Notes under the pieces: generated by a model
What the model saw: only the letters and a program-made list of their open reading frames with translations
Database searches by the model: none
Told to the model about the DNA's origin: nothing
Made by a program: the position numbers and the translations under genes
Source of the DNA: an uncultured virus (IMG/VR IMGVR_UViG_3300030202_001399)
Lineage: Duplodnaviria; Heunggongvirae; Uroviricota; Caudoviricetes
Virus record (IMG/VR): IMGVR_UViG_3300030202_001399
Length of the DNA stretch: 35,219 bases
Reading direction: 5' to 3' (one strand)
Shown here: in pieces, positions 9,530 through 35,173 of the stretch
Numbering within the stretch: position 1 is the first letter of the stretch
How the letters are laid out: the number at the start of each line of letters is the position of its first letter

Positions 9530-9534
9530 TCAAA

Positions 9535-16911: not shown

Positions 16912-17133
16912 TCACCCCATTTTCTCCGTCATCTTGCGAATCTCATCCCAAGACATTGTTCCACCATCAGGAACTTGTGTATTGTTCATAACTGGTGTTG
17001 GAGTCTCACGAACGACAAGCCCTGCTTTCATCAGCATGTTGTCCTTGTTGTATACTGCGTCTTCCAAGGCATTCACCTTGTTGACAAGTTCTTTCATTAG
17101 TAGTAACATTTCATTTTCTTCTTTCTTGCTCAT
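16912..17133 (-). CDS. Small coiled-coil protein ending in a scaffold-like MSWDEIRKM peptide
   Basis: 73 aa; ATGA-coupled. Confidence 0.7.
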   Translation of the reverse strand: MSKKEENEMLLLMKELVNKVNALEDAVYNKDNMLMKAGLVVRETPTPVMNNTQVPDGGTMSWDEIRKMTEKMG

Positions 17134-17453
17134 CTTTCATACTTCCTTTGTTCCCCTTCTAGTTTGAATGTTAATTCACCATCTGAACCAGCAAATATTG
17201 CGGCGTAGCCTTTGTCCCCATATAGTTTCCTTGCTATCTCTTGTGCCTTTGTCCGTGTCATTTTCAAGTCAGTGAGTTTAATGGTTGCATACATTTGTTT
17301 CCTTTCACCTGCTTCTCTTATTATTGGGTCTACTTTCTCTATGAACAAATCAATATACTCAGGCAATGATAGATTGTCATTACTTCTATCATCAAACTCT
17401 GATGCTCTAGGGTTTCTTATTGGTGGTGCTTTTAGTATATCATGCCATGTCAT
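17130..17453 (-). CDS. Hypothetical protein with MTWHDILK leader
   Basis: 107 aa; shared leader motif. Confidence 0.7.
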   Translation of the reverse strand: MTWHDILKAPPIRNPRASEFDDRSNDNLSLPEYIDLFIEKVDPIIREAGERKQMYATIKLTDLKMTRTKAQEIARKLYGDKGYAAIFAGSDGELTFKLEGEQRKYER

Positions 17454-17633
17454 TTAATTTTCCCTCGCTTTCTTGTTTCTCTCACGTATCATAGCCAACA
17501 GTTCTGCTTCTTTATCCTCAGTCCTCTTGGCCGCTTCTTTATCTTGTCCGGTAGAGGCTGTCGTTGTAACTCTTGCCATCTCATCTGACTTCTCTGTGCC
17601 ACAATCTCCCTTTAGTGTTTCAAACCAACTCAT
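17454..17633 (-). CDS. Small protein with MSWFETLK leader (59 aa, not in ORF track)
   Basis: MSWFETLKGDCGTEKSDEMARVTTTAS...RERNKKAREN*; ATGA overlap upstream, TAA abuts the next ATG; GAGGTGG RBS. Confidence 0.75.
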   Translation of the reverse strand: MSWFETLKGDCGTEKSDEMARVTTTASTGQDKEAAKRTEDKEAELLAMIRERNKKAREN

Positions 17634-18196
17634 TCTTCCACCTCGTTCAATAATCCAGCACTATCGAAGACAATGTATGCTCCGGGGAATTTCCTTTCTA
17701 GGTCTGATATAGGCTCACCATTGCTTATTCCTGCTATGAAAGCAGTTAGGTCTCTATTCTCCCTGTAATCAGAATATGGGTTTTCATAATATTGGTCTTT
17801 GAAGGATTCCATCGCTTGAACCGCTTTTGCATTTTTACTTCCTTGTTGTGGAGCAGTATAACCATCATCATCATCCTCTTCCTTTGTCAATTCAGTATAG
17901 GTATCTGTGAAATAGTGATATACTGTATCGAAGTGTCTTTCTGAAACTGACTTCCTCTGATGTTCTTTAGTTATGTTTAATAGGGCATTTTTATTCTTAC
18001 CTTCCAAATTCTCATCTTTTTGTATGAAGTCAATTATCTTATCACATGTTTCCCATAACTCGTTATCGATTCTATCCATCATAGTACCGTACTCATCTTC
18101 TAAATCCTCTAACTCCTGAAGAAGGTCATATATTTCTCTAGGTAAATTATCTTCCTCATCATTATAGTCCATCTTTATTATGTTAAACCAACTCAT
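17630..18196 (-). CDS. Acidic hypothetical protein with MSWFNIIK leader
   Basis: 188 aa; ATGA-coupled. Confidence 0.75.
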   Translation of the reverse strand: MSWFNIIKMDYNDEEDNLPREIYDLLQELEDLEDEYGTMMDRIDNELWETCDKIIDFIQKDENLEGKNKNALLNITKEHQRKSVSERHFDTVYHYFTDTYTELTKEEDDDDGYTAPQQGSKNAKAVQAMESFKDQYYENPYSDYRENRDLTAFIAGISNGEPISDLERKFPGAYIVFDSAGLLNEVEE

Positions 18197-18522
18197 TTCT
18201 TCTCCTCCTTCTCTCCCTTCGGATATGCTACGCTCCTGATTTGGTCATAGAGCGTTTGATAATCTTTGCGAAGTTCAGCAGCACTTGCGAGTATGTCTAG
18301 GTTCTTCTCACGAAATGACTTCATTTTCTTGGTAAGTCGTTTGTCCGTCTTCACTAAGTCGAGGTCTTCCATCTCCTTGATGACTTCCTCTAATTTTGTC
18401 ATCTCCTGACCCATGTACTCAGTTGGCTGACTTGACTGAAGAAGTTTCTTTATCTTCTTCTTCTGCTTAGGCTCTAGTTTCTCTAGAAACTCAGAGGCTT
18501 TCAGTATCTCCTGCCATGCCAT
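18193..18522 (-). CDS. Hypothetical helical protein with MAWQEILK leader
   Basis: 109 aa; GGAGG upstream. Confidence 0.75.
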   Translation of the reverse strand: MAWQEILKASEFLEKLEPKQKKKIKKLLQSSQPTEYMGQEMTKLEEVIKEMEDLDLVKTDKRLTKKMKSFREKNLDILASAAELRKDYQTLYDQIRSVAYPKGEKEEKK

Positions 18523-18543
18523 GTGTTTGCCTCCTGTGTATGC

Positions 18544-20154
18544 TCAGTTAATGTTAATTGCCCTTGTCTTACCATCTTCTAGTTTAAATTTGAAACTTCC
18601 TACTGTAACTTTAATCAATTGTTTCATCTTTTTATGTGCCTTATCTAACTTCTTCATTGCACTGTCTGTTACCGCATTGTTTCTTAGATTCAAAACCATT
18701 TCTAGAATCTCTTCAATCTTGTCTATTAATACAGGAATCTCTACCACTATGTTGCGATAAGTATCAAACATCTCAGGACTTGCTTGAAAACCTAAGAAGT
18801 CTTTAACAGGTTCTTTTAGTGGTTCATTTCCTTCAGCCTCTCTTGCTGCAACTTCTCCTTCCCATTCCCAATTCAGGTCTTTTGCATCAATGGTAGTTTG
18901 TGGCTGTTTTACTTCTTCAGACTCCTTAATTTTATACTTCTGCTCTAAGGTTATTTGTGCGTCTCTTATCTGTTTTTCAGTTGCTCGTATCTTACTCTTT
19001 ATCTTAGTTCGCTCACGCAATTCCTTTTCACTCATTTTTTTACCACTAATACGTGTTTGGCTTAACTTTTGTTTTAGTTCTTCAAGTAATGACTCACCTG
19101 AATTGATTCTATCCTTCAACTCCTGTATGTTTTTCCCTCTACCTTCTCTAACCTTCTGAGTTTGTCTTTGAGCAGCACTACTTAGATTCTCAAATACTCT
19201 TTTTGCTGCTGCTCTGCTTTCAGGTGTACTAGGTGGGAATTTACCAGTGACAAAATCTAATCTAAGTTTCTTACTCAGTTCTTCTCTAGCCTTTTCCCTT
19301 TCATCATCATCCTCGATATCTTTAGTTTGTTTATCTACTTCTTCTTTGATTCTTCTGTTTACCCAATCAGGGATGCGTATATTGCCTTTGCCGGAGTCTG
19401 CTGATTTGTTAAGTGTTGACTCTTGTACTTCCTTTATTCTATCTAAGGTAAGAACCAACTCTCTGAGTTTTACTAATAATACATCAGGGTCTTCAGGGAG
19501 ACTATCAATGTCTATTCTTTCCGTTTCTGCTAACAGACGATTAATTTGCAGCAATTGCTTTTTATTCATTCTTTTACCACTAAGCAAGCCTCTTGGCATA
19601 TCAGCAGACTCATCAAGGAAATCTCTCAGAACTGCAAGAGACTCTTTACCGTTGTATTTTCTTTCTACCTGAGTATCGAAAGCAGTAGTGTCTCCTGAAA
19701 TTTTTATTCCTAATTCCTCAGCATCTTGATAGAACACTTCCAATAGATTTCTTGGTGCAGTTTTCTGTACGATGCTCTGATAAAAATTATCTATTTTCGT
19801 TTTACTTGTAGTTCTAGGTATAAGATATGACTTGTTAAATTCCTTCATTGTTGTCTGCATACTTGGATTAGTAATATCACCAGTTTTACTGAATTTTTCT
19901 AGAATCTCTTTCCACATTGTAACAGTTCTTGCAGTTTCCAGTTTCTGTTTTTTATCTGCTTCTGCTAGTGCTTCATACTTCTTGCCTTCTTTTTCTTTCT
20001 TTCTTCTATCATCTGCAAGCAGTTGTGTTCCTGTTTTGCCTTCTTTTTCTGAAGGGTCTATTCTTCTACCATCTACTTCTTCGGCTGCTTCTGTGACAGC
20101 ACCCTCATCATCTTCCTTCTTAATACGCAAGATATCCATAAAATCCTGCGCCAT
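18544..20154 (-). CDS. Large coiled-coil K/E-rich protein
   Basis: Probable ATG 20154 (MAQDFMDILRIKK, a variant of the leader); the ORF track starts it at 20169. Confidence 0.75.
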   Translation of the reverse strand: MAQDFMDILRIKKEDDEGAVTEAAEEVDGRRIDPSEKEGKTGTQLLADDRRKKEKEGKKYEALAEADKKQKLETARTVTMWKEILEKFSKTGDITNPSMQTTMKEFNKSYLIPRTTSKTKIDNFYQSIVQKTAPRNLLEVFYQDAEELGIKISGDTTAFDTQVERKYNGKESLAVLRDFLDESADMPRGLLSGKRMNKKQLLQINRLLAETERIDIDSLPEDPDVLLVKLRELVLTLDRIKEVQESTLNKSADSGKGNIRIPDWVNRRIKEEVDKQTKDIEDDDEREKAREELSKKLRLDFVTGKFPPSTPESRAAAKRVFENLSSAAQRQTQKVREGRGKNIQELKDRINSGESLLEELKQKLSQTRISGKKMSEKELRERTKIKSKIRATEKQIRDAQITLEQKYKIKESEEVKQPQTTIDAKDLNWEWEGEVAAREAEGNEPLKEPVKDFLGFQASPEMFDTYRNIVVEIPVLIDKIEEILEMVLNLRNNAVTDSAMKKLDKAHKKMKQLIKVTVGSFKFKLEDGKTRAININ

Positions 20155-20159
20155 CTGAA

Positions 20160-20390
20160 TCATCCCCAAGGGTTGTTTGGTGTTCTTGACCTCTTCTTTT
20201 TAGGCAGTAAAATAGCATCGGGAACATCTCTTGTATCAGGAGATTTCTTTTCCACAGCATTAGGGTCAATACCACCAACAGAATAATCTCTGTTCTTAGT
20301 GGCATTCCTACTGTGGTGAGCATATTGCTCTGCTCTTGCATTCGCTAGTTCCCTTTCTAATTCTTTTACTCCTTTCTTTTCTTCTGTCAT
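20160..20390 (-). CDS. Hypothetical small protein
   Basis: 76 aa; AGGAGG RBS. Confidence 0.65.
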   Translation of the reverse strand: MTEEKKGVKELERELANARAEQYAHHSRNATKNRDYSVGGIDPNAVEKKSPDTRDVPDAILLPKKKRSRTPNNPWG

Positions 20391-20403
20391 TTCTTTTTCC
20401 TCC

Positions 20404-20916
20404 TTAATTTAAATATCCTGAACTTGAATGGTGTTTTAGTTTTTTCAATGCTGCAACTTTTTGTTTGAGTTCTCCTGTAATACGAGTGAACTCTCCCTCA
20501 TCTTTTGCATTTTTTAATTCTTCAGCCAACTCAGAAATATCAACATGTAAATTATGAACATCTTTTATCCTAACGTTAATTTTACGGTCTGGATTCATGT
20601 GGGCAGTAAAATTACTTCCCCGTCCTTGTCCTGCTTTTGTTTTCCCATAAGGATTATCAGGATGAAGGGGGTCATCTAAAATGTAATTCGGAACACCTTC
20701 AGCCTTAACTAAATTATCTATTGCTAATAGAAACTCATCCATAGTTTTCTTCATAGCACCATCTCTTAATGCCTTGAAATCTTTAGCATCGATGTCTCCA
20801 TCCTTGTCTTTGTCGAGTCCTTTCTGTCCTCCAACAAGGGCTTTATCCATCTCTTCTTGTTCAGCCGGGTCAACCATCTTAGGGTCATTCTGTTTAATTA
20901 AATTCCACCAGTTCAT
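20404..20916 (-). CDS. Protein with MNWWNLIK leader and EF-hand-like loop
   Basis: ATG 20916 after GGTGA; DKDKDGDIDAKDF loop. Confidence 0.7.
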   Translation of the reverse strand: MNWWNLIKQNDPKMVDPAEQEEMDKALVGGQKGLDKDKDGDIDAKDFKALRDGAMKKTMDEFLLAIDNLVKAEGVPNYILDDPLHPDNPYGKTKAGQGRGSNFTAHMNPDRKINVRIKDVHNLHVDISELAEELKNAKDEGEFTRITGELKQKVAALKKLKHHSSSGYLN

Positions 20917-20921
20917 CTCTC

Positions 20922-21209
20922 TCACCACAGTTTTTTACATGCTAGGCACTTAGGGGTAGTAATTCTACCTTTACATTGGTCACAGTTATGCCTTGCTCTG
21001 AAATTCTTTCTCCTAGCAGGGTCTTTGTGTGTTCCACCACCACGATTCTTACCCTTTCTCTTGTAATTACCGTAGCCTTTAGCACCAGCATGAATCTTCT
21101 TTCCTTCATGAGTTAGCATCATTATCTTCTTACCATCTCTGTCAGAAGGATAAACAGTGCCAACTCTCATGTCTTTCTTATCTTTCTTAACTACTGTAAA
21201 CCAACTCAT
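20922..21209 (-). CDS. Basic small protein with MSWFTVVK leader, Cys/His-rich
   Basis: 95 aa; KIHAGAKGY...HKDPARRKNFRARHNC...KKLW resembles a widespread viral domain of unknown function. Confidence 0.7.
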   Translation of the reverse strand: MSWFTVVKKDKKDMRVGTVYPSDRDGKKIMMLTHEGKKIHAGAKGYGNYKRKGKNRGGGTHKDPARRKNFRARHNCDQCKGRITTPKCLACKKLW

Positions 21210-21853
21210 TGCGGGCCACCTCTTGTTGTAGGTATTCTTCTCCGTCTAACCTGTCTCTCCTCTCTAGGTTTCAAGAGACTTGCAGGTTGGAATGGTTCTA
21301 GTTTTGCCTTTGGTTGATTCTTTTCATTCGCTTGTTCAATATCATCCTTAAGCCTACTATATGTACCAAGCATGTTTCCATTTACAAATATCTCAGCGTT
21401 GTCAGGAATCTTTTCATTGATGGAAAGTAATTTTTGATAACTAAGTGCATATGGAATACTTCTAGTTCTCAACTTTTCACTATCATCAGGTGCAATGTAT
21501 TTTGGCTGATATCCCTCTCTAAATCTACTCCTTGGGCTTGACATGGGCCTACGAGGATTATATTGTCCACCCTCATACCCTTTCACTTTAGTAACCAATC
21601 TCCTACTCTTCATTGATTTTTCAGGTCTTACAATTCTATTGTTTACCTTTACTCTACCATAGTTGCTTAGTTCTGCATCTTCAACATTAAAGAAAGTCGT
21701 ATTTCTACGAAATTGTGTGAGATATTTCTTGTCAAATTTTTCTCCATTTAATTCATTAGGACTATCAATAAAAATAATTGGATTCTCTATTGTTCCTCCC
21801 TTTGAGTCAACAGGGTCAACAAAAGGCATTTTCAAAATATTAAACCAACTCAT
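21206..21853 (-). CDS. Basic hypothetical protein with MSWFNILK leader
   Basis: 215 aa; coupled to both neighbours. Confidence 0.72.
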   Translation of the reverse strand: MSWFNILKMPFVDPVDSKGGTIENPIIFIDSPNELNGEKFDKKYLTQFRRNTTFFNVEDAELSNYGRVKVNNRIVRPEKSMKSRRLVTKVKGYEGGQYNPRRPMSSPRSRFREGYQPKYIAPDDSEKLRTRSIPYALSYQKLLSINEKIPDNAEIFVNGNMLGTYSRLKDDIEQANEKNQPKAKLEPFQPASLLKPREERQVRRRRIPTTRGGPQ

Positions 21854-22822
21854 CTAACCCCTCCTCTTGAACCAGCCATGAAGACCTTCATCTTTTTCTC
21901 GGCTAAACGTTCCAGCCTTTCTTCTCTTCGGCTTCCCGCCTCTTCTTTTGTAATCCTTACAAGCAGAACAGGTCGGGCGACATCTTCTCTTTGTTCCTTT
22001 TGATGCATCTTTTCTACCACAAGGTTCTGTTCCGGGTTTATCATCATCACAAGAAGCACAACTGACCCAATCTTTCACTAGCATGTCTTCCCAAGATTTT
22101 TTGACATCCCTATCTAAATACGCATCAGCAATTAGAAGCCCTGCTTCCTTTCCAATTTCGATGTCGCTTGGATAATGGTTGCCCATTTTAACTCTTGATA
22201 GTGATATCTTTCCGGCAAGTTTCATCAACTCCTTCTCTTTGTCAGGATACTCCTTACCTAGAATCTTGGCTAATGCATAGGCTTCCATCGCATGACCGCT
22301 TGGAAACGATGGACTATCATCTGTATCCGTTGTAGATTCTATCTTGTCTGAAATTTCATATGGTCTTGGTCTTCCGTATTTTACTTTGAGTTTGATTGTA
22401 TGAATATCAATATCTTCAATCAAATCCTCTCTATCCTCTTTACTCTCACCAACAACCTTCAACATCATCTCGTTGTTATTTTGGTCTAGGTCTTCCATTT
22501 CATCCTCATCAATCTTGTTAGCGTTCATCATAGCGAGAACTTTAGGGAGTTCTTTCTCATTTTCAGGATGCTCATAGTCAGGGAAGTCTACATCGAATGA
22601 AGGCTCAGACTCAAACAGTCTTCTCTTTTCTTCTGATAGATTCTTAGGAGTGTATTTTGATTCTGCTTTTTTGACTGAGTTACCCCAATTAGCAGCACCG
22701 ACTTTTCTACACTGCACTAATGCTCCTGAAGCATAAGCGGAAGGCCACTTTTTGTATCTGCTTCTGACCTTACGATAACAAGCATCTTTCTCTTTCTTTA
22801 ATTCCTCAAACCAAAGAGTCAT
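21854..22822 (-). CDS. PAP2/vanadium-haloperoxidase-family phosphatase flanked by Cys-rich basic mini-domains
   Basis: Three PAP2 motifs KVKYGRPRP, SFPSGH, SRVKMGNHYPSD; leader MTLWFEELKK. Confidence 0.85.
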   Translation of the reverse strand: MTLWFEELKKEKDACYRKVRSRYKKWPSAYASGALVQCRKVGAANWGNSVKKAESKYTPKNLSEEKRRLFESEPSFDVDFPDYEHPENEKELPKVLAMMNANKIDEDEMEDLDQNNNEMMLKVVGESKEDREDLIEDIDIHTIKLKVKYGRPRPYEISDKIESTTDTDDSPSFPSGHAMEAYALAKILGKEYPDKEKELMKLAGKISLSRVKMGNHYPSDIEIGKEAGLLIADAYLDRDVKKSWEDMLVKDWVSCASCDDDKPGTEPCGRKDASKGTKRRCRPTCSACKDYKRRGGKPKRRKAGTFSREKDEGLHGWFKRRG

Positions 22823-22923
22823 GCTTTTTCCTCCAAATATTTTTTTATTCTTTCATCTGTTTCTGCATTGAGTCTGTCTATCTCTTCTTTCCATTTCCTG
22901 ACAAACTCAAGTATGTCGCTCAA
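22819..22923 (-). CDS. 34-aa helical microprotein (not in ORF track)
   Basis: TTG start overlaps the portal stop (TTGA); MSDILEFVRKWKEEIDRLNAETDERIKKYLEEKA*; its stop overlaps the next ATG (ATGA). Fills the gap exactly. Confidence 0.6.
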   Translation of the reverse strand: MSDILEFVRKWKEEIDRLNAETDERIKKYLEEKA

Positions 22924-24548
22924 CCTACTCTCCTCTCAGTCCTTGAATCAACATTCTGATTACCCGCTTCTTGCGGTAATCCTGTGAATCTCTTATCAGG
23001 GCCAGTCTCCATAGATGGTTTGTTTCTAGTTTCACCACCGCCCTGACCTCCCATCAACTGCTGTTCTTGTAACTGACCTAATTGACTTGCATCGATATCT
23101 GTTCCTGCGTATGGGTCAGTTTCCACTTTTTCTTCTCCTCCTTCTTGCTGTGGTGCTTCAGGTTTAGGCTCAGGTTTCTTGAAGGTGAATCTTCCCTCGT
23201 CATCCATGTCAACTTCAAACCCTAGATTTTTAATTGACGCTGCTACGTTAACTTCAATCTCCCTCTTTCGTAATTTAGCAATTTCATCCTCTTCTTCTGA
23301 TGGAGGCAGTTTCAATTCCCAATCGGTAATTCCAAACTCCTTAGTCATAAACGGGAACACATAATTATTCCAAATTGTCTGTGCCATCTCGACTGCTCTG
23401 TTGGTTACAAGTATCTGCATACCCTCGTTATTGAGACCACCGCTTGCAGAGTTGTCTGCCATGAAGATTTTACTTACTCCATAGAAAGCAGCGATTCTAT
23501 CTCTCAAGTCTTCTTTGACTTGTATGTAGTCCATTTCCTTTAGGCTATCCATGAACTTAATCCATTCGATTCCACCTTTACCCTCTCCTTCTATTCCCAT
23601 CACAGGAATGAAGTGTGGGTCTTGTTCCATCTTCTCTTTGACACCACGCCAAAAGGACTTCATGGATTCCATGTTTCTAGTTTGAACAGCAAGTAGTCCT
23701 CTAGGCATTCTTGCCTTGGTGTAAGATGAGTTGACATAGTTCTCCATTGCAATCAGAGTTGTGATATGATTCCAAAGAGTCATGATAGGTGATTGTCCAT
23801 ACAATCTCGAAGGAGCATACTTACTGAAATGAAGCACTTCTCCTTCGATGAATGCTTGTTCTTTCCCATTGGCTCTATTTACATAATGCACTGGATGTAG
23901 TTCAGAACCACATATCTCACAAGAATCACTCATATTTTTACTGATATGTCCTCTATGAGTCAAACAGGTATATCCTTCATTTCCTCTTTCACCATTCTCA
24001 TCAGCATAAATATGCATACTAACAGGGTCTCCTCGATAGACTTCCTTTATTCGATGCATTCTGATATCACCGTTTCCATCTAAGAAGTATTCCTTTACCA
24101 TTACCATGTAGGCATCATCCATGATATTCAAGTCGTCCTCCATTTCTTTGAGAACATCGATGAACATCTGTTCACCTTTGTTTACATGCCCATCTAGTAA
24201 CTTGTGGATGTATTTCAGTTGTTCTCTATCAGGTTTGATTAGATTTGTACTGCCACAATCAACACATTCTGTTACAGCCTGTTTATGTTCTCTCCCACAA
24301 TCACCGCAACGTGCAGTAAACTTTTCTTCCCAAATATATCCTCTTCTGAATATTTCATTCTTCAGTTGTGTAATACAAGTTCTAGCAATCACGGACTGAT
24401 AAGTAACGTGATAAATTATTGGAGCAGTAATCAGATAGGAAGTATCTTTCTCTTGTATGCCCGGATTGTATATCGTTCGGTCTTGTGGCTTCGGTGTTGT
24501 TCTGCGTGTCAAACGCTGAAACAACGAGGGTCTGTTTTCTTCTACCAT
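22920..24548 (-). CDS. Portal protein with Zn-ribbon insertions
   Basis: EVLHF..YGQSPI, MPRGLL, MDYIQVKE..RDRIAAFYGVSKIF are HK97-like portal motifs; near TerL; probable ATG 24548. Confidence 0.88.
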   Translation of the reverse strand: MVEENRPSLFQRLTRRTTPKPQDRTIYNPGIQEKDTSYLITAPIIYHVTYQSVIARTCITQLKNEIFRRGYIWEEKFTARCGDCGREHKQAVTECVDCGSTNLIKPDREQLKYIHKLLDGHVNKGEQMFIDVLKEMEDDLNIMDDAYMVMVKEYFLDGNGDIRMHRIKEVYRGDPVSMHIYADENGERGNEGYTCLTHRGHISKNMSDSCEICGSELHPVHYVNRANGKEQAFIEGEVLHFSKYAPSRLYGQSPIMTLWNHITTLIAMENYVNSSYTKARMPRGLLAVQTRNMESMKSFWRGVKEKMEQDPHFIPVMGIEGEGKGGIEWIKFMDSLKEMDYIQVKEDLRDRIAAFYGVSKIFMADNSASGGLNNEGMQILVTNRAVEMAQTIWNNYVFPFMTKEFGITDWELKLPPSEEEDEIAKLRKREIEVNVAASIKNLGFEVDMDDEGRFTFKKPEPKPEAPQQEGGEEKVETDPYAGTDIDASQLGQLQEQQLMGGQGGGETRNKPSMETGPDKRFTGLPQEAGNQNVDSRTERRVG

Positions 24549-24549
24549 T

Positions 24550-25902: not shown

Positions 25903-25911
25903 ACTCTCACC

Positions 25912-27348: not shown

Positions 27349-27833
27349 TAAATTAGCCCCCTCATCATTGGGAAGAACCATGAGGTGTTCTTCATTATGC
27401 CCCAATCATCACCATAGCGTTCAGTGAACTTGTCAGTCAGTTCCTTTGGAATCCCCATCATATCCTCTCGTTGATAACCTGCTCTCTCATTCATAGCAGT
27501 CCATTTTGCCTGTGGCATCTTCGTTGCACGAAACCCTGCTATCTTTGGTTTGTTGCCAAGTTTACCTTTTCTGTAAGTTAACATTGCCTTCCAGTTTCCC
27601 CCACCTTTCGGTTGGTCTTTTCCTCTAGCCTTCATACCACCAAGGATAGCATAGTCTCCCATATCTGTGTAACCAGCGATTCCAACAACTTCACCATCAT
27701 TGGTTCTAACTATCCAATTCTGTATGTCATACCATGAAGGTGCGTTTCTTGAAAATGGGTCATCAGGGTTATCCCTGTTCCACATGCGGATTGCTTCTGC
27801 TTCAGAAACTTCCTTGATTTGTATGTCTGCCAT
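27348..27833 (-). CDS. Possible GNAT-fold acetyltransferase
   Basis: ATG 27833 after AGGTGAGG; WIVRTNDGEVVGIAGY..AILGGMKARG..KGGGNWKAML..NERAGY follows the GNAT strand/motif A/motif B order. Confidence 0.45.
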   Translation of the reverse strand: MADIQIKEVSEAEAIRMWNRDNPDDPFSRNAPSWYDIQNWIVRTNDGEVVGIAGYTDMGDYAILGGMKARGKDQPKGGGNWKAMLTYRKGKLGNKPKIAGFRATKMPQAKWTAMNERAGYQREDMMGIPKELTDKFTERYGDDWGIMKNTSWFFPMMRGLI

Positions 27834-27837
27834 TTCC

Positions 27838-30750
27838 TCACCTGAAGTTCGCTTTGAGGAAATAGACCCCCTCTTGTGGAATACCATATTTAGTTCCAAG
27901 ACTACTCATTGAGTCAAAGTCCTTGACGATATTCTCTATATCCATAGCAGTCATATCAGTTTTGTATTTGACATTCATGTAGTCTATTGCTTCTGAGACT
28001 GCATTATAATTATCAACATTTGACATACCGTAGTAAATCGGTTTACCCAACATTTTTCTAATCTCATCGTGTGCTTGTAGAATCAAAGTCTCTTCATCAG
28101 ATTTGGTTATTTTCAAATCTGTTTCCGCTTGAATTATATTTTGAATAATCGAGTCTGCTCCTTTCATGTCCTTGTATGCACTACTAGTTCTGTTAGACAT
28201 CAAATGATAGAATAGTGTTTCAAACGGATACATTTTATTTTTATCATATTTTTCAGCAAGTTTATCTGTTTGAGATTTTGTACCAAGTCCAAATGGTTTT
28301 GACTCTAGGTTAGCATCTGTGAATATATTGTGTAAGAAGTGACCAAACTCAACATTTACTTGTTCTGTTAATTCGCCCTCGAATATATCATCTATCGTAT
28401 CTGCGAGGTCTGTTGTTTTCACGATAAGTTCATTCTGTTTTGACCCTACATTTAATGAAGTTAGAAGCCTCATGAAATCTCGTATGTCTTCTAACTCAGA
28501 AAGGTCTAGTGTAAAGTCCTCGCTTTCCATTCTCAACATCTGTATGAAGGGGCTGTCTGTCGCTGAAGTTTCTTTTGATATGTTTTCAATCGGGCGACTA
28601 CCAGTTTTAGTAATGAAGTCAAGCGGTTCATCTGATGGTTTGTTCCTACTTCTGCTAGGCTCTATGAAGAAGGCGACTATTGCCTTCGTTAGTTTTTCAA
28701 ACAAAGTAGCAATATTCAAATCTTTAATTTCCTTGATATGTGTCTTCCCTGCTCCCGCTCCCCCAAAGGTCGTTCTAGGAGAACGTGCTTCTCTAATTGT
28801 TCTACCTTCTTTGTCTTTCTTTGCTCCTTGACCAAGACCACTAGAAGCACCTTTAGAACTTCTTTCAAAGTCATCACCATACTCGATAAACTCATTGAAG
28901 AGTTTAATGTAGTTGGCTATTCTATCATGCACTTTCAAATCTTGGCTCTCATCTATTTCTTTCATAACAGGAAGATATGTATTATCTAAATTGCCTGATT
29001 GCATTTTTTCTAAGTCCTTGATGTATCTATCTAGGCTAGGAACTAGATAACCCATATCCACTATAACCATGCCAGTCTTCAATCTCCTTGAAATTTCTTT
29101 CAACTGTTTGGAGATAATAGCCCCTGATTTCAATTCTTCAGTTTCCCCTTTTTCCATAGCATAAGCATAAAGAGGGTCTACCTTGATTTTTGTCAGTGAG
29201 TTTATTTTATCTTTCAATGCTTCTTCCTCATCTTCAATGGCCTCTGCCTGTCGTGCAGCCTCCCTCATCTCTTGCATTATTTCTTCGGGAGTTTTCTTTT
29301 CCTTAACATCAGCATCTGTTCCCTTTGGTTTTTCGCCACCTATTGTTTTGATTCCCTTTGGTGAAGTGGTAGTCTCCCCATCTGTATTTTCTTCAGTCAC
29401 CAATAGTTTATCGTCAGGATATTTCCCTACCTCTTTAAGAAATCCTTGTAGAAGCATTATTGATTTTTGTTCAATGTTATCAATATCATCAATTGCAATT
29501 CTATCATGGCGTTGTACATAATTCAAGTCATCAACCTTAACAGCCTTGAATTTCTTGAATGTGCTTTGTAGTTCCTCGCTATACTCATCGTCTATCTTAT
29601 CCATTGCTCCTAGAAACGCATCATGTGCCTTTGTGAAATCAGAGAACTTACCTGAGATGTCAGACCAGTATTCATAGATTTGCTCTCTTCTCTTCAAGGC
29701 TTTAGTGTCTAACCTGCCAATAATCTCAGATGCTCTAGGTAGAGATACTCTATATCTTGCTTCACCTTCTTGCTTCTTAGCATCCAACTGTTTCAACATC
29801 ATCTTGAACGGATGCATAATTGGAACGAAGTATTCAGGTATGGATGTCTCTAAGATATCTATCGCTTCATCAACATCCTCGTCTGTGAATCCAAGTCTGA
29901 TGTTTCTTTTAACATAGTTCCCCCAAGATATATTTCTTCTGACAGTCTTCTTTGGTGCATAATTTCTGAAGTACAAGTCAAAAATTCTAGCATCTACCTT
30001 TTTCCCGTCTTGCTTGAACATACTAAGTATTCTAGAGATATCACTATCTGCCTTTGCTTCGGCTATAACTTCAGATGCAGACAGTCTAGTAGTAGTGGCT
30101 TCATCTCCTGTTACCGCTTTTCCATATCCCTGCCTGACAAGTTCATCAATATAGATAGTGACATCCTTGGCCTTTATCTCGTCAAATAGATTAGGAAATT
30201 TTTCTTCTAGTTCCGATTCGACATCCGCTCTGACAGTTGAAGGATTCTTCGCTGTTCCATCGGCATTTACCGAAAGCCTTCCTTGAAGAGAATCTCCTCT
30301 CATAATGGCTTCATCACTAGACTCTCTAGAGTTAGATTTGCTTTGTAGGTAAATATACAGCACATCGTCAGGAAACTCCTTCATATCCTTTATTTTGAGT
30401 TTTTCAGTAACGCCCTTACCTGAAGGTTTCTCTTGACCATAAACAGGTCTATCATCCTCCCTTGTTAGTAAGTCTATGAGAACGGTTTTCTTCGGGTTGC
30501 CTGTTATTCCAGCAAGAAGCCCTCTTTCATCTGCCAATTGTTTTACCTGATTATAAGACATATTTGAATAATCAGAAGTTTCTTTTGTCTTGGTTTCTCT
30601 TGGTGTGCCGTCTTCATTAAACTCTGCTTTGGATTTACCATTCTTCCAAAAGTGTTCAGCGTTCAAACGATTCATGTAGTCTTTCAATTCTGTTCTACCA
30701 TCTTCTATTAAGATAGCAAATGCACGATTCAAATCAACATTCGGTTTCAC
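27838..30750 (-). CDS. Large K/E/D-rich protein with N-terminal HeH/Rho-N-like motif
   Basis: 970 aa; DYSNMSYNQVKQLADERGL..KKTVLIDLL; GTGA-coupled. Confidence 0.75.
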   Translation of the reverse strand: MKPNVDLNRAFAILIEDGRTELKDYMNRLNAEHFWKNGKSKAEFNEDGTPRETKTKETSDYSNMSYNQVKQLADERGLLAGITGNPKKTVLIDLLTREDDRPVYGQEKPSGKGVTEKLKIKDMKEFPDDVLYIYLQSKSNSRESSDEAIMRGDSLQGRLSVNADGTAKNPSTVRADVESELEEKFPNLFDEIKAKDVTIYIDELVRQGYGKAVTGDEATTTRLSASEVIAEAKADSDISRILSMFKQDGKKVDARIFDLYFRNYAPKKTVRRNISWGNYVKRNIRLGFTDEDVDEAIDILETSIPEYFVPIMHPFKMMLKQLDAKKQEGEARYRVSLPRASEIIGRLDTKALKRREQIYEYWSDISGKFSDFTKAHDAFLGAMDKIDDEYSEELQSTFKKFKAVKVDDLNYVQRHDRIAIDDIDNIEQKSIMLLQGFLKEVGKYPDDKLLVTEENTDGETTTSPKGIKTIGGEKPKGTDADVKEKKTPEEIMQEMREAARQAEAIEDEEEALKDKINSLTKIKVDPLYAYAMEKGETEELKSGAIISKQLKEISRRLKTGMVIVDMGYLVPSLDRYIKDLEKMQSGNLDNTYLPVMKEIDESQDLKVHDRIANYIKLFNEFIEYGDDFERSSKGASSGLGQGAKKDKEGRTIREARSPRTTFGGAGAGKTHIKEIKDLNIATLFEKLTKAIVAFFIEPSRSRNKPSDEPLDFITKTGSRPIENISKETSATDSPFIQMLRMESEDFTLDLSELEDIRDFMRLLTSLNVGSKQNELIVKTTDLADTIDDIFEGELTEQVNVEFGHFLHNIFTDANLESKPFGLGTKSQTDKLAEKYDKNKMYPFETLFYHLMSNRTSSAYKDMKGADSIIQNIIQAETDLKITKSDEETLILQAHDEIRKMLGKPIYYGMSNVDNYNAVSEAIDYMNVKYKTDMTAMDIENIVKDFDSMSSLGTKYGIPQEGVYFLKANFR

Positions 30751-32624
30751 TCATTCACCCCCTGTGCTATCTGTATCCAAACAGCAGGTTCAACAAACCC
30801 ACCTTCAGGGCTTGGTATCTTCCTGTTGAATACCTTGCCCTCTGCACTAACGTCCTTCATTCTATCCTTAACTCCATCAAGGAACAGTTTTCTTATTTTC
30901 GGATATGACTCTATGACTATCTCCTTAAATTCTTCAGTGGTTATATTCCCTTCTTCTAAATCCTCTTCATCTATTTCAGGCCCATTGTATATTTCACTTA
31001 ATCTCTTCAAGGTAATTATTATTCTGTCTAAAGTTCCATCGGATTCTGTGTTTATAGAAGGAGTCAAATCATCGCTAATAATATCCTCAAGGATAGACCA
31101 AGCATCGACTTTCTGAGATTCAAAATACTTTAGTGTTTTCTTATCTTCCTTAGAAGTCGCAACCATTGTGTTATCACTTCTTCTCAATGTCATTTCCTTT
31201 AGGGCATCTTCTACCTTTTCTGAATCACCTAACTCTTCCTCAAGTTCCCTGAAGTTTTTGAATGAATCAGTGATTCCTAGTTTTCCTATGGCTTCAACAA
31301 AGTCATCTACTTCACCACCTTCCAGTGCATCTACTATCTCATCTCTGATTTCTTTAGTCATTTTCTGAGATTTATCTCCCTCTATCTCAGCCATGACCTC
31401 CTTGAAAGCATCGTTTGCTTCAGGGTCTCGCTTTATCTCTGCAAACATATCTCTCTTGGCTTTGTTTCCTTTTCTTGAAAGAGAATTATACTTATCTTTA
31501 GTAGATGCACTTCTATCGGGTTTACCATCCTCAGTGCGTAAACCTAACTTTTTCTCTCTGTCAACTTTCTCTTCCTCTGTTTCATTCTTAGCCCCAAAGA
31601 GTGCAATAATATCTTCCTTATACTTATCATAAATCCGAACAATAGTCGGTTCTGTTATTATTTCATCAATTATGTTTCGTAGTGCTTTATCCTCTACATT
31701 GAATCTTTTCTTATACTTAGTAGGAATTGCCGATTGGTTTAGCCCTTCATTATCCAATATGAAATCCAATGCAGGTGACATTGCCTTTGTTGCAAAAAGT
31801 AACTTAGCAATAGCATCAGTGTCGGGCATGTAAATGAAACTCACTTTCTTCTTCGGTGCAGCGATATTCATTATCTTCTTGATATAATCAATTGCGGTTT
31901 CATCAGTTATAGAAGTTCTAATTTCTACTTGAGGAACACCGCCTATTTTAAGAATCGACTTTATCCTACGCAATGCAGGATATTTTTCTTTAGTGTCAGT
32001 AAGAATAATTCTTTTCAAACTCTTATTCTCTTGAATATATCTTCTTGCTCTTTTAGCCACATCAGAAAGTGAGTCAGCATACTTGTCTTTGCCCCTTCCT
32101 TCTAACATAGCAAGAAGTTTGTCGTATTCTTTATTCTCAATAAAAGACTTAACGCTGTTTTCAAGCCCCACTCTTTTCCCTGTTGCTTTAGTTTTCTTCG
32201 GTTCTACACTATCTAGTCTTGCAACCATCTCAGTAACATTATCAAAAGGCGGGACTGAAACTTTGAAGTCTGTTCCTCTAATGTTCACAACTTCCCCTTG
32301 AAGAAGTCTCTTTGCCTTCTGAACAGATTGAACTTGAGAAGAAGTCAATTCGTCTTTCGTGTATTCTTCCCAATTCTCATCAGTAGAGGCTGCTCGCCAA
32401 ATGTTGTATGTCGGGGTGTCGGGTTTAATTGGAAACTCCTTTACTTCCTGCTTTCCAAAATCGAAGAGGTTGGCATCCTTCGTCTTAGCAGATTCTTTCT
32501 CCCTGCGAAGTTTCTCATCTCTCCTGCGATGAAACTTCTTTCTCTCTTCGTTGTAGCCCATAACTTGAGGCTTCACCTTCTTTGGTTCGATTTTCTTTTC
32601 CTTGAGAACGTCTTGCCAACTCAT
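30747..32624 (-). CDS. Large K/E-rich protein with MSWQDVLK leader
   Basis: Real start likely ATG 32624 (ATGA overlap with the upstream stop). Confidence 0.78.
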   Translation of the reverse strand: MSWQDVLKEKKIEPKKVKPQVMGYNEERKKFHRRRDEKLRREKESAKTKDANLFDFGKQEVKEFPIKPDTPTYNIWRAASTDENWEEYTKDELTSSQVQSVQKAKRLLQGEVVNIRGTDFKVSVPPFDNVTEMVARLDSVEPKKTKATGKRVGLENSVKSFIENKEYDKLLAMLEGRGKDKYADSLSDVAKRARRYIQENKSLKRIILTDTKEKYPALRRIKSILKIGGVPQVEIRTSITDETAIDYIKKIMNIAAPKKKVSFIYMPDTDAIAKLLFATKAMSPALDFILDNEGLNQSAIPTKYKKRFNVEDKALRNIIDEIITEPTIVRIYDKYKEDIIALFGAKNETEEEKVDREKKLGLRTEDGKPDRSASTKDKYNSLSRKGNKAKRDMFAEIKRDPEANDAFKEVMAEIEGDKSQKMTKEIRDEIVDALEGGEVDDFVEAIGKLGITDSFKNFRELEEELGDSEKVEDALKEMTLRRSDNTMVATSKEDKKTLKYFESQKVDAWSILEDIISDDLTPSINTESDGTLDRIIITLKRLSEIYNGPEIDEEDLEEGNITTEEFKEIVIESYPKIRKLFLDGVKDRMKDVSAEGKVFNRKIPSPEGGFVEPAVWIQIAQGVNE

Positions 32625-33283
32625 TGTAACTTCTCCTGCATCTTGTCTCTTACATCCAACCAAACTTCAGGATGATTCTGTGCTAGAACCTCCTTGATGA
32701 CCTGCATCTGATGAACGATGATAGTGTCTTGCCTCTTATGCACCAGTTTGCCCTTAAATTCCAGTAAATATTTCAGAGACTCACGCACTTCCTTCGCTAA
32801 TTTAGTCAATGAGTCGATATATTTCGGGTCTGTTGAGTCTTCAGCAAAAAGTGTATCAATTTTTTGCTCCAATCTCTGAACATTCACACTCAGAGTCTCG
32901 ATTTCGTCAACTTCTCTCGTTGCAATCAGGTTCGCAGCAGATTGTTGGACAATTGGCTGAAGATGTTTCTCCATATGTCGCATAACTTGGACATCTGAGC
33001 ATCCTACCATCTCTCCGACTGCTGAAGGAGTGACTTCTCCGGCATGAAGTTGGGCTTCTATCTCTGCTCTCATGGGGTTGGAGCAAATTCTACAACTTGG
33101 GTTTGAAGATTCGACATATCCGCCCATGTGATTCCTCTGATGTCGTGCAGATGTTCCACTTTTCCAGTTCATCTGTTGGTCGAGAGCGTCTGCGGTGTAA
33201 CTCATGGCTTCCAAATCAGCCTCAAGTTGACTCCTATCCTCATGCATACACAAAGGACAACGCTTTCTCGTAATCATACTCAC
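32621..33283 (-). CDS. Tandem CxxC-HTH-HxxxH protein with coiled-coil; candidate terminase small subunit
   Basis: CPLC..RHQRNH and CRIC..RHMEKH repeats, then oligomerisation-like helices. The TerS call is inference. Confidence 0.5.
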   Translation of the reverse strand: MSMITRKRCPLCMHEDRSQLEADLEAMSYTADALDQQMNWKSGTSARHQRNHMGGYVESSNPSCRICSNPMRAEIEAQLHAGEVTPSAVGEMVGCSDVQVMRHMEKHLQPIVQQSAANLIATREVDEIETLSVNVQRLEQKIDTLFAEDSTDPKYIDSLTKLAKEVRESLKYLLEFKGKLVHKRQDTIIVHQMQVIKEVLAQNHPEVWLDVRDKMQEKLQ

Positions 33284-33372
33284 TCAGCCCAACAATTCCT
33301 GTAACAATATGGGCAACAACTACCTATTGCCATGTTATCTACATTCACTTCCTTAATTCCTCTACACTTCAT
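33280..33372 (-). CDS. 30-aa Cys-rich microprotein (not in ORF track)
   Basis: MKCRGIKEVNVDNMAIGSCCPYCYRNCWAE*; ATG abuts the upstream TAA and the stop overlaps the next GTG. Confidence 0.4.
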   Translation of the reverse strand: MKCRGIKEVNVDNMAIGSCCPYCYRNCWAE

Positions 33373-34464
33373 TTACTGCACCATCTTTACAATTTGTCTC
33401 CAATCGGAAAAATCCTGCTTTTTTGCCGACTTTTCTAATTTAGTATTCTTGAAACCAGCGATTTCTGCCATGTTATTAATTTGCCTTACTGAAATCTTTA
33501 GATAGACTTCTTCCAAGTCAACCTTGAAGTCAGTTTGTAACCACTNNNNNNNNNNTTTCTTAGATTCATCATCCTTCAATGGGAGTTTAGTGTTTAGAAT
33601 CTCCTTCTGTAATTTCTTAGCATTGACGTTTCCTGTACGATAAATGTAAGAGGGATTTTTGATTCTACTATCAAACCAATTTTTGAAAGTAGGAAGATTC
33701 TCATAAACCCACTTTGCTGCCTCTCCTCTCATCTTTGGGTTCTTGATAGTCAAGTTGAATGGGTTGTTCCTAGTATTGTATGCTTTAGCATCTCCTGTTT
33801 CAAACGACTCTAATACCAAATTGCACATCATAAGAAGACTAGGATACTTGAAGTCGAGCAAATCTCCTTTCTCTTCAGCAAAGAGTGCTTGCCAAACAGG
33901 AACTTTGGCTTTACCTGCTCCACCTTCTCCTATTACATACCAATGTTTGGGGGCTTCCTCAACTGACCTGTCTTTATGCCTTCTTTGATATTTCACATAC
34001 TTTGGAGTTCTATAATCGCCAAACACAGGAACATCTTGTAGAACCTTACCTTTCTTGTTGTAACTACGAATGCTTTTGAATTTAATATTCTGAGGATTTA
34101 TCTTTGAATCGGGAGTATTATTTTCAACTAGATAATCCTTCAATTCCTTCACTGCTGTAAGTTGCTTTGTTGTGTAAGCGTCTTCGCTTCCAGCAGTAGA
34201 TGCCTTATCGATATACTCTTGAGTCGAACCTGTTTTGACTTCTTGAGTTTCACCTTTTGAGTTCTTTCTAGATTTAACACCCATTCCACCAATGAACTCT
34301 AAGATTGTCTGTGGCATCTTTGGAATACTCTTACCAGCCTCGGAAGTCCAACCTTCTAACATGGTTGAAAAGTTAGGAACATCTTCACCTAATTCGACTT
34401 CCAATCCGGGGGCTAACTCCATCGTGAACTTCTTTTTCTTTAGAGGTTTTTTTCTTTTTACCAC
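33373..34464 (-). CDS. Lys-rich hypothetical protein (spans an assembly gap)
   Basis: About 363 aa; start uncertain (GTG 34464 or ATG 34422); ends SDWRQIVKMVQ. Confidence 0.65.
   Translation of the reverse strand: MVKRKKPLKKKKFTMELAPGLEVELGEDVPNFSTMLEGWTSEAGKSIPKMPQTILEFIGGMGVKSRKNSKGETQEVKTGSTQEYIDKASTAGSEDAYTTKQLTAVKELKDYLVENNTPDSKINPQNIKFKSIRSYNKKGKVLQDVPVFGDYRTPKYVKYQRRHKDRSVEEAPKHWYVIGEGGAGKAKVPVWQALFAEEKGDLLDFKYPSLLMMCNLVLESFETGDAKAYNTRNNPFNLTIKNPKMRGEAAKWVYENLPTFKNWFDSRIKNPSYIYRTGNVNAKKLQKEILNTKLPLKDDESKKXXXXWLQTDFKVDLEEVYLKISVRQINNMAEIAGFKNTKLEKSAKKQDFSDWRQIVKMVQ
33546..33555. other. Assembly gap (10 N)
   Basis: Run of n characters. Confidence 0.99.
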
Positions 34465-34582
34465 GCTTCTTTCCTCCCCCGTATTTTACATTGAATAATG
34501 GTGCTGTTCCGCCGGAGGTTGTGGTAACTGCGCCAGCCATTCGCAAAATATTAAACCAAGAAGATTCGGATACTGATGACAC
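34385..34582 (-). CDS. Small basic protein with SWFNILR leader
   Basis: 65 aa; AGGAGG upstream of GTG. Confidence 0.55.
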   Translation of the reverse strand: MSSVSESSWFNILRMAGAVTTTSGGTAPLFNVKYGGGKKRGKKKKTSKEKEVHDGVSPRIGSRIR

Positions 34583-34628
34583 AACCTGAACCTCCTGAAT
34601 ACACTGTGGACAATAAACATTGTTCTAA

Positions 34629-34859
34629 TTAACTAGTTGCTTCCATATCCTTTCGCCTTTGAATTGCTTCACAGACAGAACAAATATTAGAGCCATCAGA
34701 ACGTTGTTTGACATTCAGTTTCATTCTTCCACAAACATCACACTGTTGTTTTGTAGGAGTAGTTTGTGAAGGCTCTGCTGTTGGTTTAGTTGCAAGTCTA
34801 TCTCGCATTCGCATGTTGTATTCTAAAGGGTCTATTTTTAGAACACTGAACCAACTCAT
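34629..34859 (-). CDS. Small Zn-ribbon protein with MSWFSVLK leader
   Basis: CDVC..CSVC; ATGA-coupled. Confidence 0.7.
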   Translation of the reverse strand: MSWFSVLKIDPLEYNMRMRDRLATKPTAEPSQTTPTKQQCDVCGRMKLNVKQRSDGSNICSVCEAIQRRKDMEATS

Positions 34860-35173
34860 CTCATTGCTCTCCTATAAAATTCAGAGGTATTAATATCGTC
34901 CAACAATTCCCTTGCTTCAGAAAAAACATCTTTTAATTCCTTCTCTATTTCTTCTAACTGTTTACTTAAGACAAGCATTCTTTCACCTTTTACTGCATTC
35001 TCCCTAGTTATAGGTTCATCATCTTGTAGCGCAATTCTCGCTCGTTCTTCCAAAAATCCCCTAAAGAAAGAAACATCATTTTCAACATCTCCTCCGTTTA
35101 GGATTTTTTTAGCCGTTTTAATTTGTCCAAGAGAATAGTTGCCAGTTTCTTTCAATATGTCTTCCCAACTCAT
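34856..35173 (-). CDS. Hypothetical protein with MSWEDILK leader
   Basis: ATG 35173 after AAGGTGA. Confidence 0.72.
   Translation of the reverse strand: MSWEDILKETGNYSLGQIKTAKKILNGGDVENDVSFFRGFLEERARIALQDDEPITRENAVKGERMLVLSKQLEEIEKELKDVFSEARELLDDINTSEFYRRAMR

Follow-up and report, generated by a model that had tools for sequence, protein, structure and literature searches.

A short N-terminal peptide shared by unrelated head-arm proteins of a probable marine archaeal tailed virus: a candidate head-loading and cleavage tag

Encapsulin cargo-loading peptides are short terminal peptides that dock diverse cargo inside an HK97-fold shell. Among tailed phages, the capsid-targeting sequence (CTS) of T4 is a short N-terminal peptide on diverse proteins that are encoded with the head genes and make up a polymorphic accessory set (PMC3012670, PMC9024508). 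In P1, the first 30 residues of DarB suffice to bring a reporter into the head (PMC9024508), and DarA is processed by the protease Pro (PMC12810830). Here we analyze a 35,219-nucleotide stretch of DNA from an uncultured virus (IMG/VR record IMGVR_UViG_3300030202_001399; "the window" below is this whole stretch), in which eleven minus-strand genes begin with the same eight-residue tag, M-[STNA]-W-x-x-[IVT]-[LIV]-[KR], and two further genes carry looser variants of it (MTLWFEELKK at 22822 and MAQDFMDILR at 20154). The tag reads as a short amphipathic helix with a Ser-x-x-Asp/Glu capping box and with Trp, Ile and Leu on one face; behind it, after a linker that varies, come many soluble proteins of the head-assembly arm that are unrelated to one another and turn over fast. 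Selection acts on the tag as a peptide, the tag is modular and confined to the head arm, and its end matches conserved motifs that border the viral protease domain. From its sequence we read it as a removable head-loading and cleavage tag of the T4-CTS kind, an interpretation that we hold with a little more than even confidence.

The events that this interpretation proposes are simple. The tag would dock its protein inside the shell or on the scaffold during prohead assembly; the S78 prohead protease, active only inside the prohead, would then cut after the Lys of the tag, the same kind of cut that it would make at the I-L-K borders of the protease domain and at an L-L-K in the capsid protein; and the freed proteins would remain in the head with the DNA and might enter the host with it. 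Loading and cleavage had been suggested for these genes in an earlier reading of the bare sequence (the original prediction), and its observable part stood up, as the tag acts at the protein level, sits on unrelated bodies, occurs in the head arm only, and ends in I-L-K as the protease borders do; docking, cutting, packaging and ejection are steps that we infer.

All 13 starts named in the original prediction were present on the minus strand, eleven canonical and two variant. They are listed here with lengths in amino acids (aa), isoelectric points (pI) and, for some, the score of the tag on a matrix that was built from 89 distinct tags of other genomes and scored at 11,193 positions of the window's 41 proteins.

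34856..35173, minus strand: g1, 105 aa, MSWEDILK; acidic helical body of no family; matrix score 22.9
34629..34859, minus strand: g2, 76 aa, MSWFSVLK; four Cys (CxxC...CxxC), with Zn-ribbon matches only below cut-off
34385..34582, minus strand: g3, 65 aa, GTG start, SSWFNILR; pI 10.8; matrix score 21.0
30747..32624, minus strand: g6, 625 aa, MSWQDVLK; no family
21854..22822, minus strand: g12, 322 aa, variant MTLWFEELKK; DUF5872/phrog_727-like domain, then a soluble PAP2 phosphatase
21206..21853, minus strand: g13, 215 aa, MSWFNILK; pI 10.0, no family; matrix score 24.2
20922..21209, minus strand: g14, 95 aa, MSWFTVVK; DUF5754 (E 1.9e-7), C-terminal four-Cys cluster, pI 10.4
20404..20916, minus strand: g15, 170 aa, MNWWNLIK; EF-hand-like loop, 15.5 bits against a Pfam cut-off of 25.4
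18544..20154, minus strand: g17, 536 aa, variant MAQDFMDILR; Phe for Trp and Arg for Lys at unchanged spacing, long helical body
18193..18522, minus strand: g18, 109 aa, MAWQEILK; the only near-core tagged family
17630..18196, minus strand: g19, 188 aa, MSWFNIIK; very acidic, pI 4.25
17454..17633, minus strand: g20, 59 aa, MSWFETLK
17130..17453, minus strand: g21, 107 aa, MTWHDILK; body begins directly after the Lys (APPIRNP...) in all orthologues

Chance did not account for these starts. The DNA pattern ATG-NNN-TGG-N6-NTN-NTN-AAR had 9 matches in the window against 0.11 expected, all of them on the minus strand and at tagged starts, and a count of 9 was reached in none of 100 shuffles. The eleven best of the 11,193 matrix positions were exactly the eleven canonical N-termini (scores 16.7-24.2), including that of g3, where the tag lies at residues 8-14, set back by 7 residues and ending in Arg, a form kept in relatives. 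Both variant tags are likewise kept in orthologues, and they score low on the matrix (2.3 for the one at 22822, -0.7 for the one at 20154). The next best score, 13.7, fell at a non-terminal site, W-K-E-T-V-K at residues 43-48 of a DNA ligase. We rejected the ligase as a tagged protein: both flanks of the motif are equally conserved in 40 distinct homologues, some of which lack the motif, and it is therefore probably a structural part of the folded N-terminal domain and no tag.

The similarity among the 13 proteins stops at the Lys, as had been claimed: no residue dominates at positions 9-16, and the 13 bodies gave no BLASTP match better than E = 0.4. The cargo types assigned to them in the original prediction survived in part. 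The PAP2 phosphatase of g12 (E 1.3e-13) passes its Pfam cut-off, as does the DUF5754 of g14, and strongly basic proteins are present; the EF-hand and Zn-ribbon labels stayed below cut-off. Relaxed Pfam scans of 16 small proteins gave only matches below threshold, and Protein Atlas look-ups of g6 and g13 gave no usable match. In g12 the PAP2 motifs KxxxxxxRP, PSGH and SRxxxxxHxxxD are all there, the C-terminus is rich in Cys and Lys/Arg, and the Cys-containing DUF5872/phrog_727-like domain is one found also within unrelated phage proteins.

The tagged proteins range in pI from 4.25 to 10.8, with three at pI 10.0-10.8, and all are soluble (maximum 19-residue hydropathy 1.36). A Trp/Ile/Leu face beside a Lys is a kind of pattern that membrane-targeting helices show, and the tag might on that ground be thought to bring late proteins to the host membrane, e.g., for egress. 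We consider this highly improbable, as position 4 is charged or polar (E, Q or K) in 115 of 180 tags, the cargo is anything from very acidic to very basic and has no membrane features, the tags sit among head genes and not among tail or lysis genes, and a helix of about six residues is shorter than the membrane-targeting sequences known.

The bodies change behind the tag. From 31 ten-kilobase stretches upstream of the capsid gene we collected 129 tagged open reading frames (ORFs), which fell into 51 body families, 33 of them singletons; only the family of g18 is near-core, being present in 23 of the 31 relatives. All indels in the g18 family alignment lie directly after the Lys of the tag, and in an AlphaFold2 model of g18 (predicted local distance difference test, pLDDT, 72), which is all-helical, the tag forms a separate short helix at residues 3-8 with a pLDDT of about 54. 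In all forms of g21, those fused to g20 included, the body sets in directly behind the Lys; in two such fused ORFs (4960-5433 of locus L078 and 4948-5439 of locus L005) the internal tag is replaced by an unrelated stretch without Trp, MSKIYLDAPIRK, as if only a free terminus could keep a tag. The version of the tag on PAP2 and DUF5872-like bodies differs from genome to genome: relative L288 has a canonical MWQEILK directly ahead of the g12-type DUF5872-like domain, and others have VSWFDAIK ahead of a PAP2 body. Descent from one old paralogous family that diverged past recognition everywhere except at the N-terminus might be suspected from the tandem tagged genes of similar length in some relatives, e.g., several of 89 aa in locus L075. 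We find it barely credible: the bodies of tagged proteins run from 36 to 795 aa, the 13 of the window share no pairwise similarity by BLAST, the bodies include PAP2, DUF5754 and DUF5872-like domains known untagged in other viruses, and common descent would still leave the retention of only 8 residues to be explained.

Across relatives the tag is strand-specific. In 80 related loci that total 1.06 Mb, a regular expression for it matched 180 times on the strand of the capsid gene and never on the opposite one, and for the consensus we pooled the window, the related loci and four complete genomes into 180 unique tagged ORFs. Position 2 is Ser in 123 of the 180, position 5 is D, E or N in 151, and position 8 is Lys in 175; position 3 is Trp, position 4 F, E, Q or K, position 6 I, V or T, and position 7 L, I or V. 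A Shine-Dalgarno-like word stands upstream of 147 of the 180. Codons at positions 6-8 vary freely, with six codons for Leu, about ten for Ile/Val/Thr, and AAA 120 times to AAG 55 times for Lys, roughly as they are used genome-wide, and even at the free positions 2, 4 and 5 certain residues are strongly preferred. Because synonymous codons at positions 6-8 are free while the residue class is kept, selection acts on the peptide, with the exception of an AGT excess at codon 2 that is weighed below. Tags, protease borders and C-terminal pegs (the last two are described below) are the same in a clade with no more than about 60% identity in the capsid protein; scans for a sister lineage with a different tag returned only tag-less lineages or this 60%-identity clade. 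In IMG/VR the commonest DNA form of the tag occurs in at least 135 stretches, often several times per contig. In 596 Gb of prokaryote genomes it had 36 single matches in unrelated phyla, near a rough chance estimate of about 26, and no matching record was titled as Poseidoniales; a host or cellular origin of the tag was rejected on these scattered, near-chance matches.

The genes that give the tags their setting follow in order of transcription; the credible genes of the window are all on the minus strand.

35173-32624, minus strand: small-gene cluster 1, first in transcription order
after cluster 1 and before the large terminase, minus strand: 970-aa protein
25912..27405, minus strand: large terminase subunit, standing between the two tag clusters
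24550-25902, minus strand: 450-aa protein with an HNH-endonuclease-like C-terminal part (phrog_5046, E 3.9e-6), between terminase and portal
22920..24557, minus strand: portal protein, the upstream limit of the second tag cluster
22822-16417, minus strand: small-gene cluster 2, between portal and ligase
13846-16410, minus strand: ATP-dependent DNA ligase, 854 aa, between the tagged genes and the protease, inside the head module
12569..13807, minus strand: Peptidase_S78 prohead protease and acidic coiled-coil scaffold in one protein of 412 aa
11206..12567, minus strand: major capsid protein, 453 aa, followed by head-completion and tail genes

Neither the ORF starts nor the matrix scan of the window placed a tagged gene downstream of the capsid gene, in agreement with the original prediction, which had also proposed enrichment by genome position as a check. 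In four complete genomes of 95-98 kb, with the head arm taken as the 13 kb upstream of the terminase through the capsid gene and ORFs counted from 60 codons, 42 of 147 ORFs in the head arm were tagged against 1 of 1377 elsewhere (Fisher p = 2e-44), the latter denominator taking in non-coding ORFs on both strands; the contrast stayed extreme with rough gene calls (115-124 genes per genome). The tag is thus far from being equally common on replication genes.

What the tag ends in can be compared with the protease itself. Residues 26-173 of the protease-scaffold protein match PF04586 (Peptidase_S78; 33.4 bits against a cut-off of 21), the protein also matches the head maturation protease phrog_23555 (E 6e-16), and 22 homologues all keep H68, S126 and E155. 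A BLASTP alignment with HK97 gp4, which is weak (E 0.03), puts Ser126 on gp4 Ser114, which we take to be one of the catalytic residues of gp4, and F-D-I-L-K/H on I-A-A-M-K/S (slashes follow the Lys in question). The protease domain is flanked by F-Q-I-L-K (13745-13759, residues 17-21) and F-D-I-L-K (13289-13303, residues 169-173). All 40 unique homologues have F-x-I-L-K-S at the N-border (residues 17-22), preceded by variable sequence; at the C-border, N-P-E-A-K-F-D-I-L-K (residues 164-173), all 40 have F-D-I-L-K, and the sequence past its Lys varies. The commonest tag, W-F-D-I-L-K, holds the whole C-border motif F-D-I-L-K.

A related stretch lies in the capsid protein, where the conserved N-A-L-L-K (12484-12498, residues 24-28) is a candidate maturation cut site: of 37 unique sequences, 35 have the L-L-K of G-N-x-L-L-K-[A/S] (residues 23-29) and none lacks its Lys, and in a 95-row alignment that reaches down to 27% identity the consensus at the site is still Lys, below the 90% list. 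For HK97, the sequence record reads T-F-N-K/S-L-G-S at residues 100-107 and the solved mature chains span 104-385, which places the gp5 cut after Lys103. Since the tag ends as the I-L-K borders do and the S78 type member cuts after Lys, a cut after hydrophobic-Leu-Lys would be the most economical reading of a similarity that ends at the Lys. AlphaFold2 gave the protease-scaffold protein a mean pLDDT of 47 with the protease domain unfolded and helices at 301-382 and 401-410, and a complex prediction of the capsid protein with its 95-row alignment, the protease core (22-167) and the first 40 residues of g18 scored 0.00 in both runs, which were made without controls and speak neither for nor against binding.

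The match to invariant protease borders, the likeness to the capsid L-L-K, the end of conservation at the Lys and the Lys-directed cut of the S78 type member would all fit a cleavage-only propeptide as well, i.e., a tag that is just a protease site whose removal activates or matures the protein, with entry into the head due to other features of each protein or with some of the proteins cut outside the head. We regard this as unlikely. An 8-residue propeptide on more than 50 unrelated families would have no obvious masking role, and the Trp at -5 and the capping box are kept in the tags and absent from the capsid N-A-L-L-K, which makes the tag more than a cleavage site. As a rule a prohead protease works only within proheads, and if this one does so too its substrates must be inside the head anyway.

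Sequences at C-termini bear on docking, and two of them lie in genes adjoining the tagged ones.

33373..34464, minus strand: g4, 363 aa, untagged at its N-terminus; C-terminal W-R-Q-I-V-K, tag-like stretch at 33376-33405
16912..17133, minus strand: g22, a 73-aa helical "mini-scaffold" with the C-terminal peg MSWDEIRKMTEKMG at 16915-16956

The W-R-Q-I-V-K of g4 lies 3 residues before the stop and scores 5.4 on the tag matrix (rank 16 of 11,193). Each of the four complete relatives has an ORF with W-x-x-I-[VLM]-K 3-4 residues before its stop, ORFs that we took as g4 homologues with bodies unaligned. Such a copy looks like a docking element, because a cut there would free almost nothing; as cut sites, copies in this place make no sense, which is a further point against a cleavage-only propeptide. 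Apart from this, the g4 sequence contains a 10-base run of N (33546-33555), read as XXXX in the translation.

The scaffold also ends in a peg, MSWGDIHNLARKVN (12572-12613), with the consensus [M/V/I]-[S/T]-W-x-[D/E]-[I/L/V]-H-x-[L/F/I/V]-x-R in 27 unique tails and with its predicted helix at 401-410. The end of g22 is of the same type, M-D-W-D-D-I-H-K in most orthologues and MSWDEIRK in the window. Distant lineages that lack the tag have the scaffold-tail peg too (K-S-W-Q-D-I-H-F-M-A-R in L278 and M-T-W-R-E-V-E-D-Y-V-A-K in L276), and L273 and L277 have only peg-like scaffold tails; the distant tag-less lineages with the peg are archaeal viruses of 30-40% GC, and the stretches concerned are 7401-8162 in L276 and 9523-9918 and 6717-7157 in L278. 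From this distribution the peg looks like an old capsid-docking element, and we speculate that the tag was built by joining the front of the peg to the I-L-K cut site of the protease.

Several observations weigh against taking the tag as a head-loading and cleavage peptide, and we gather them here. The relation to the peg is partial: tag and peg are alike in their first half only (M-S-W-x-D/E-I), the g22 peg scores 2.4 on the tag matrix and the scaffold peg falls outside the top 32 positions, and pegs also occur in distant lineages without tags, so the tag cannot just be a copied peg. The head module of halovirus HVTV-1 has no tag or peg of such form. Hydrophobic-hydrophobic-Lys is not depleted in the window's tagged bodies (10 observed, 12.7 +/- 3.5 expected), and so the protease would need more context than this, or the bodies would also be cut. 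Two points of location belong here as well. The sole tagged gene outside the head arm in the four complete genomes (3003-3710 of G002, also L081; minus strand, 235 aa, MSWFSILK) is on the strand opposite to the head arm, at the tail-fibre end of the genome, and the four tagged genes that the window has ahead of the terminase stand among genes without an assigned role, so that their membership of the head module is assumed.

A further point concerns codon 2, as at 35168-35170 and 21848-21850. Of the 123 tags with Ser there, 119 write it AGT, a codon that makes up 24% of Ser codons elsewhere. Untagged MS- starts also favour AGT (16 of 30), and part of the bias is therefore a general start-context effect; the stop-start overlap ATGA, in which 68 of the 180 tagged starts meet an upstream stop, covers 57 of the 119 AGT tags. 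Overlap and start context explain a part of the excess only, and some nucleotide-level signal remains, perhaps a trace of the tag having spread as a segment of DNA. Conservation at the DNA rather than the protein level, named in the original prediction as evidence that would tell against it, is not seen, apart from the AGT excess at codon 2.

One could go further and see in the Shine-Dalgarno word followed by ATG AGT TGG an RNA or DNA element (a translational operator, a coupling signal or a recombination linker) of which the peptide is a by-product. With AGT so dominant and TGG the sole Trp codon, ATGAGTTGG is nearly fixed as nucleotides, and the ATGA overlaps and the swapping of bodies exactly at the tag boundary would suit such an element. 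We nevertheless think it very unlikely, given that codons 6-8 are free while their residue class is kept, that position 2 may also be Thr, Asn, Ala, Asp or Gly, that C-terminal S-W copies use TCT and TCA, that the set-back tag of g3 has no ATG beside its Trp, and that the AGT bias is partly one of start context.

The two points of location would fit a tag that docks its proteins not to the capsid but to some common viral or host hub (e.g., a chaperone, a host complex, or the portal or terminase) and so coordinates a set of accessory late proteins that are never packaged; the Trp/Ile/Leu face of a short amphipathic helix would serve as a generic linear binding motif. This seems to us quite unlikely: the tags cluster tightly between portal and protease, they resemble the first half of the scaffold peg and the protease borders, nothing suggests itself as the hub, and cellular genomes do not have the tag above chance level.

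If the head-loading and cleavage reading is right, the nature of the cargo becomes of interest. T-even internal proteins are anti-restriction factors, and by analogy with their turnover the cargo may be a catalogue of counter-defence proteins against Poseidoniales; we know of no study of Poseidoniales defences. A stronger form is plug-and-play effector delivery, in which any protein that gained the tag would be loaded, clipped free and injected, and the more than 50 cargo families, with the PAP2 phosphatase, zinc-binding proteins and histone-like basic proteins among them, would form an early anti-defence arsenal. No capsid-addressing code would have been known from an archaeal virus before it, and it would give a ready handle for packaging foreign proteins. 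We offer this tentatively, and would give it somewhat less than an even chance.

The host named here follows from the lineage to which the window appears to belong. Magroviruses are tailed viruses of Poseidoniales (Marine Group II archaea). The window's capsid protein matched, in the phage collection, only haloviruses (HVTV-1 and HCTV-1/5, 25-28% identity) and methanogen viruses, at 22-28% identity overall; at least 596 relatives of the window are in IMG/VR, the complete ones are 92-98 kb long, with terminal repeats in one, and a B-family DNA polymerase is present in all four complete relatives and a ligase in the window. The capsid affinity, a genome of about 65-100 kb with this polymerase and a ligase, and the marine metagenomic origin are the marks of a magrovirus, whose capsid protein is described as nearest to that of haloarchaeal siphoviruses, at 33% identity, by Philosof et al. 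(PMC5434244). On these comparisons the window most likely comes from a marine archaeal tailed virus of the magrovirus group, with its host presumed from that placement.

Some features of these genomes stand apart from the tag. The polymerase match is split in two pieces, with stop codons in the matches, in three of the four complete relatives (G003, G004 and G005). One record with a related capsid gene and tag matches, IMGVR_UViG_3300021958_000021 (L162, L324), has 184.7 kb, roughly double what is usual for these genomes, perhaps through concatenation or mis-assembly. In the window, the ligase has a conserved N-terminal extension of about 210 aa, and the HNH-like gene stands directly before the portal, as an HNH gene does in HVTV-1. 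Directly downstream of the capsid and decoration-like genes, a 166-aa protein (10270-10770) has a C-terminal SAP DNA-binding domain (E 3.6e-10), unusual for a head-tail joining region, and a 223-aa protein of the tail region (8582-9253) has small-GTPase matches (Roc, MMR_HSR1, Arf), all below threshold.

The original prediction knew of no such system in archaeal viruses, and the literature agrees with it as far as we searched. Term searches in the main text of magrovirus papers turned up no mention of the tag, with "N-terminal" absent and "motif" used only for an unrelated helix-turn-helix in one paper; a full-text search found no paper joining "capsid targeting" with "archaeal virus"; and papers that pair magroviruses with "proteom" appeared to deal with proteome-based phylogeny only. 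A head-loading tag would give a function, or at least a location, to a large part of the "dark" genes of one of the sea's most abundant archaeal virus groups: of the roughly 26 genes of this head arm about 11-13 are tagged, and over all relatives the tagged families number more than 50. With such a tag, the tag-directed protein packaging of T4 and P1 would reach archaeal viruses and the HK97-type protease family, and a cut rule for the protease (after hydrophobic-Leu-Lys) would be predicted. Its short, well-defined consensus makes it directly testable without culture of the host.

Among the known systems, the encapsulins differ most in setting, as they are non-viral, have no protease step and use a different consensus. 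HK97 gp4 is, like the protease here, of the S78 family, and in both a hydrophobic-hydrophobic-Lys stands about ten residues past the last conserved strand (by the weak alignment); unlike this virus, HK97 lacks separate cargo proteins and a common tag, and it uses the delta domain of its capsid protein as scaffold. The C-terminus of gp4 plays a part in capsid targeting. For the scaffold and g22 pegs, as opposed to the N-terminal tag, the comparison is with the P22 scaffolding protein and with 80alpha gp46 and SaPI1 CpmB, the latter reportedly two proteins with a common capsid-binding tail. P1 DarB offers an N-terminal stretch that acts as a head-loading signal for a non-structural protein, as we propose for the tag, and the P1 prohead protease trims another cargo protein encoded nearby, as the tagged proteins here would be trimmed; the P1 signal, however, is about 30 residues long, belongs to one protein and works by stepwise loading via other Dar proteins.

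The T4 CTS, carried by IPI-III and Alt and removed by gp21, is closest: both are short shared N-terminal peptides located with head genes on a changeable accessory set, and as the T4 CTS ends in the consensus site of its own prohead protease, the I-L-K end of the tag equals the protease-border motifs at which we expect the cut. The two have no sequence likeness, and the protease here matches Peptidase_S78, S78_2 and HK97-like phrogs and is not of the gp21 type; the T4 prohead protease belongs to family S77 and cuts after Glu, where the enzyme here probably cuts after Lys. T4 has a handful of tagged proteins, against 11-13 tagged genes here and at least 51 body families, and the system described here further differs in its tag-like copies at C-termini, in its presumed archaeal host and in being known from sequence alone. 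Judged on this evidence, it is an analogue of the T4 CTS and not a member of the same system.

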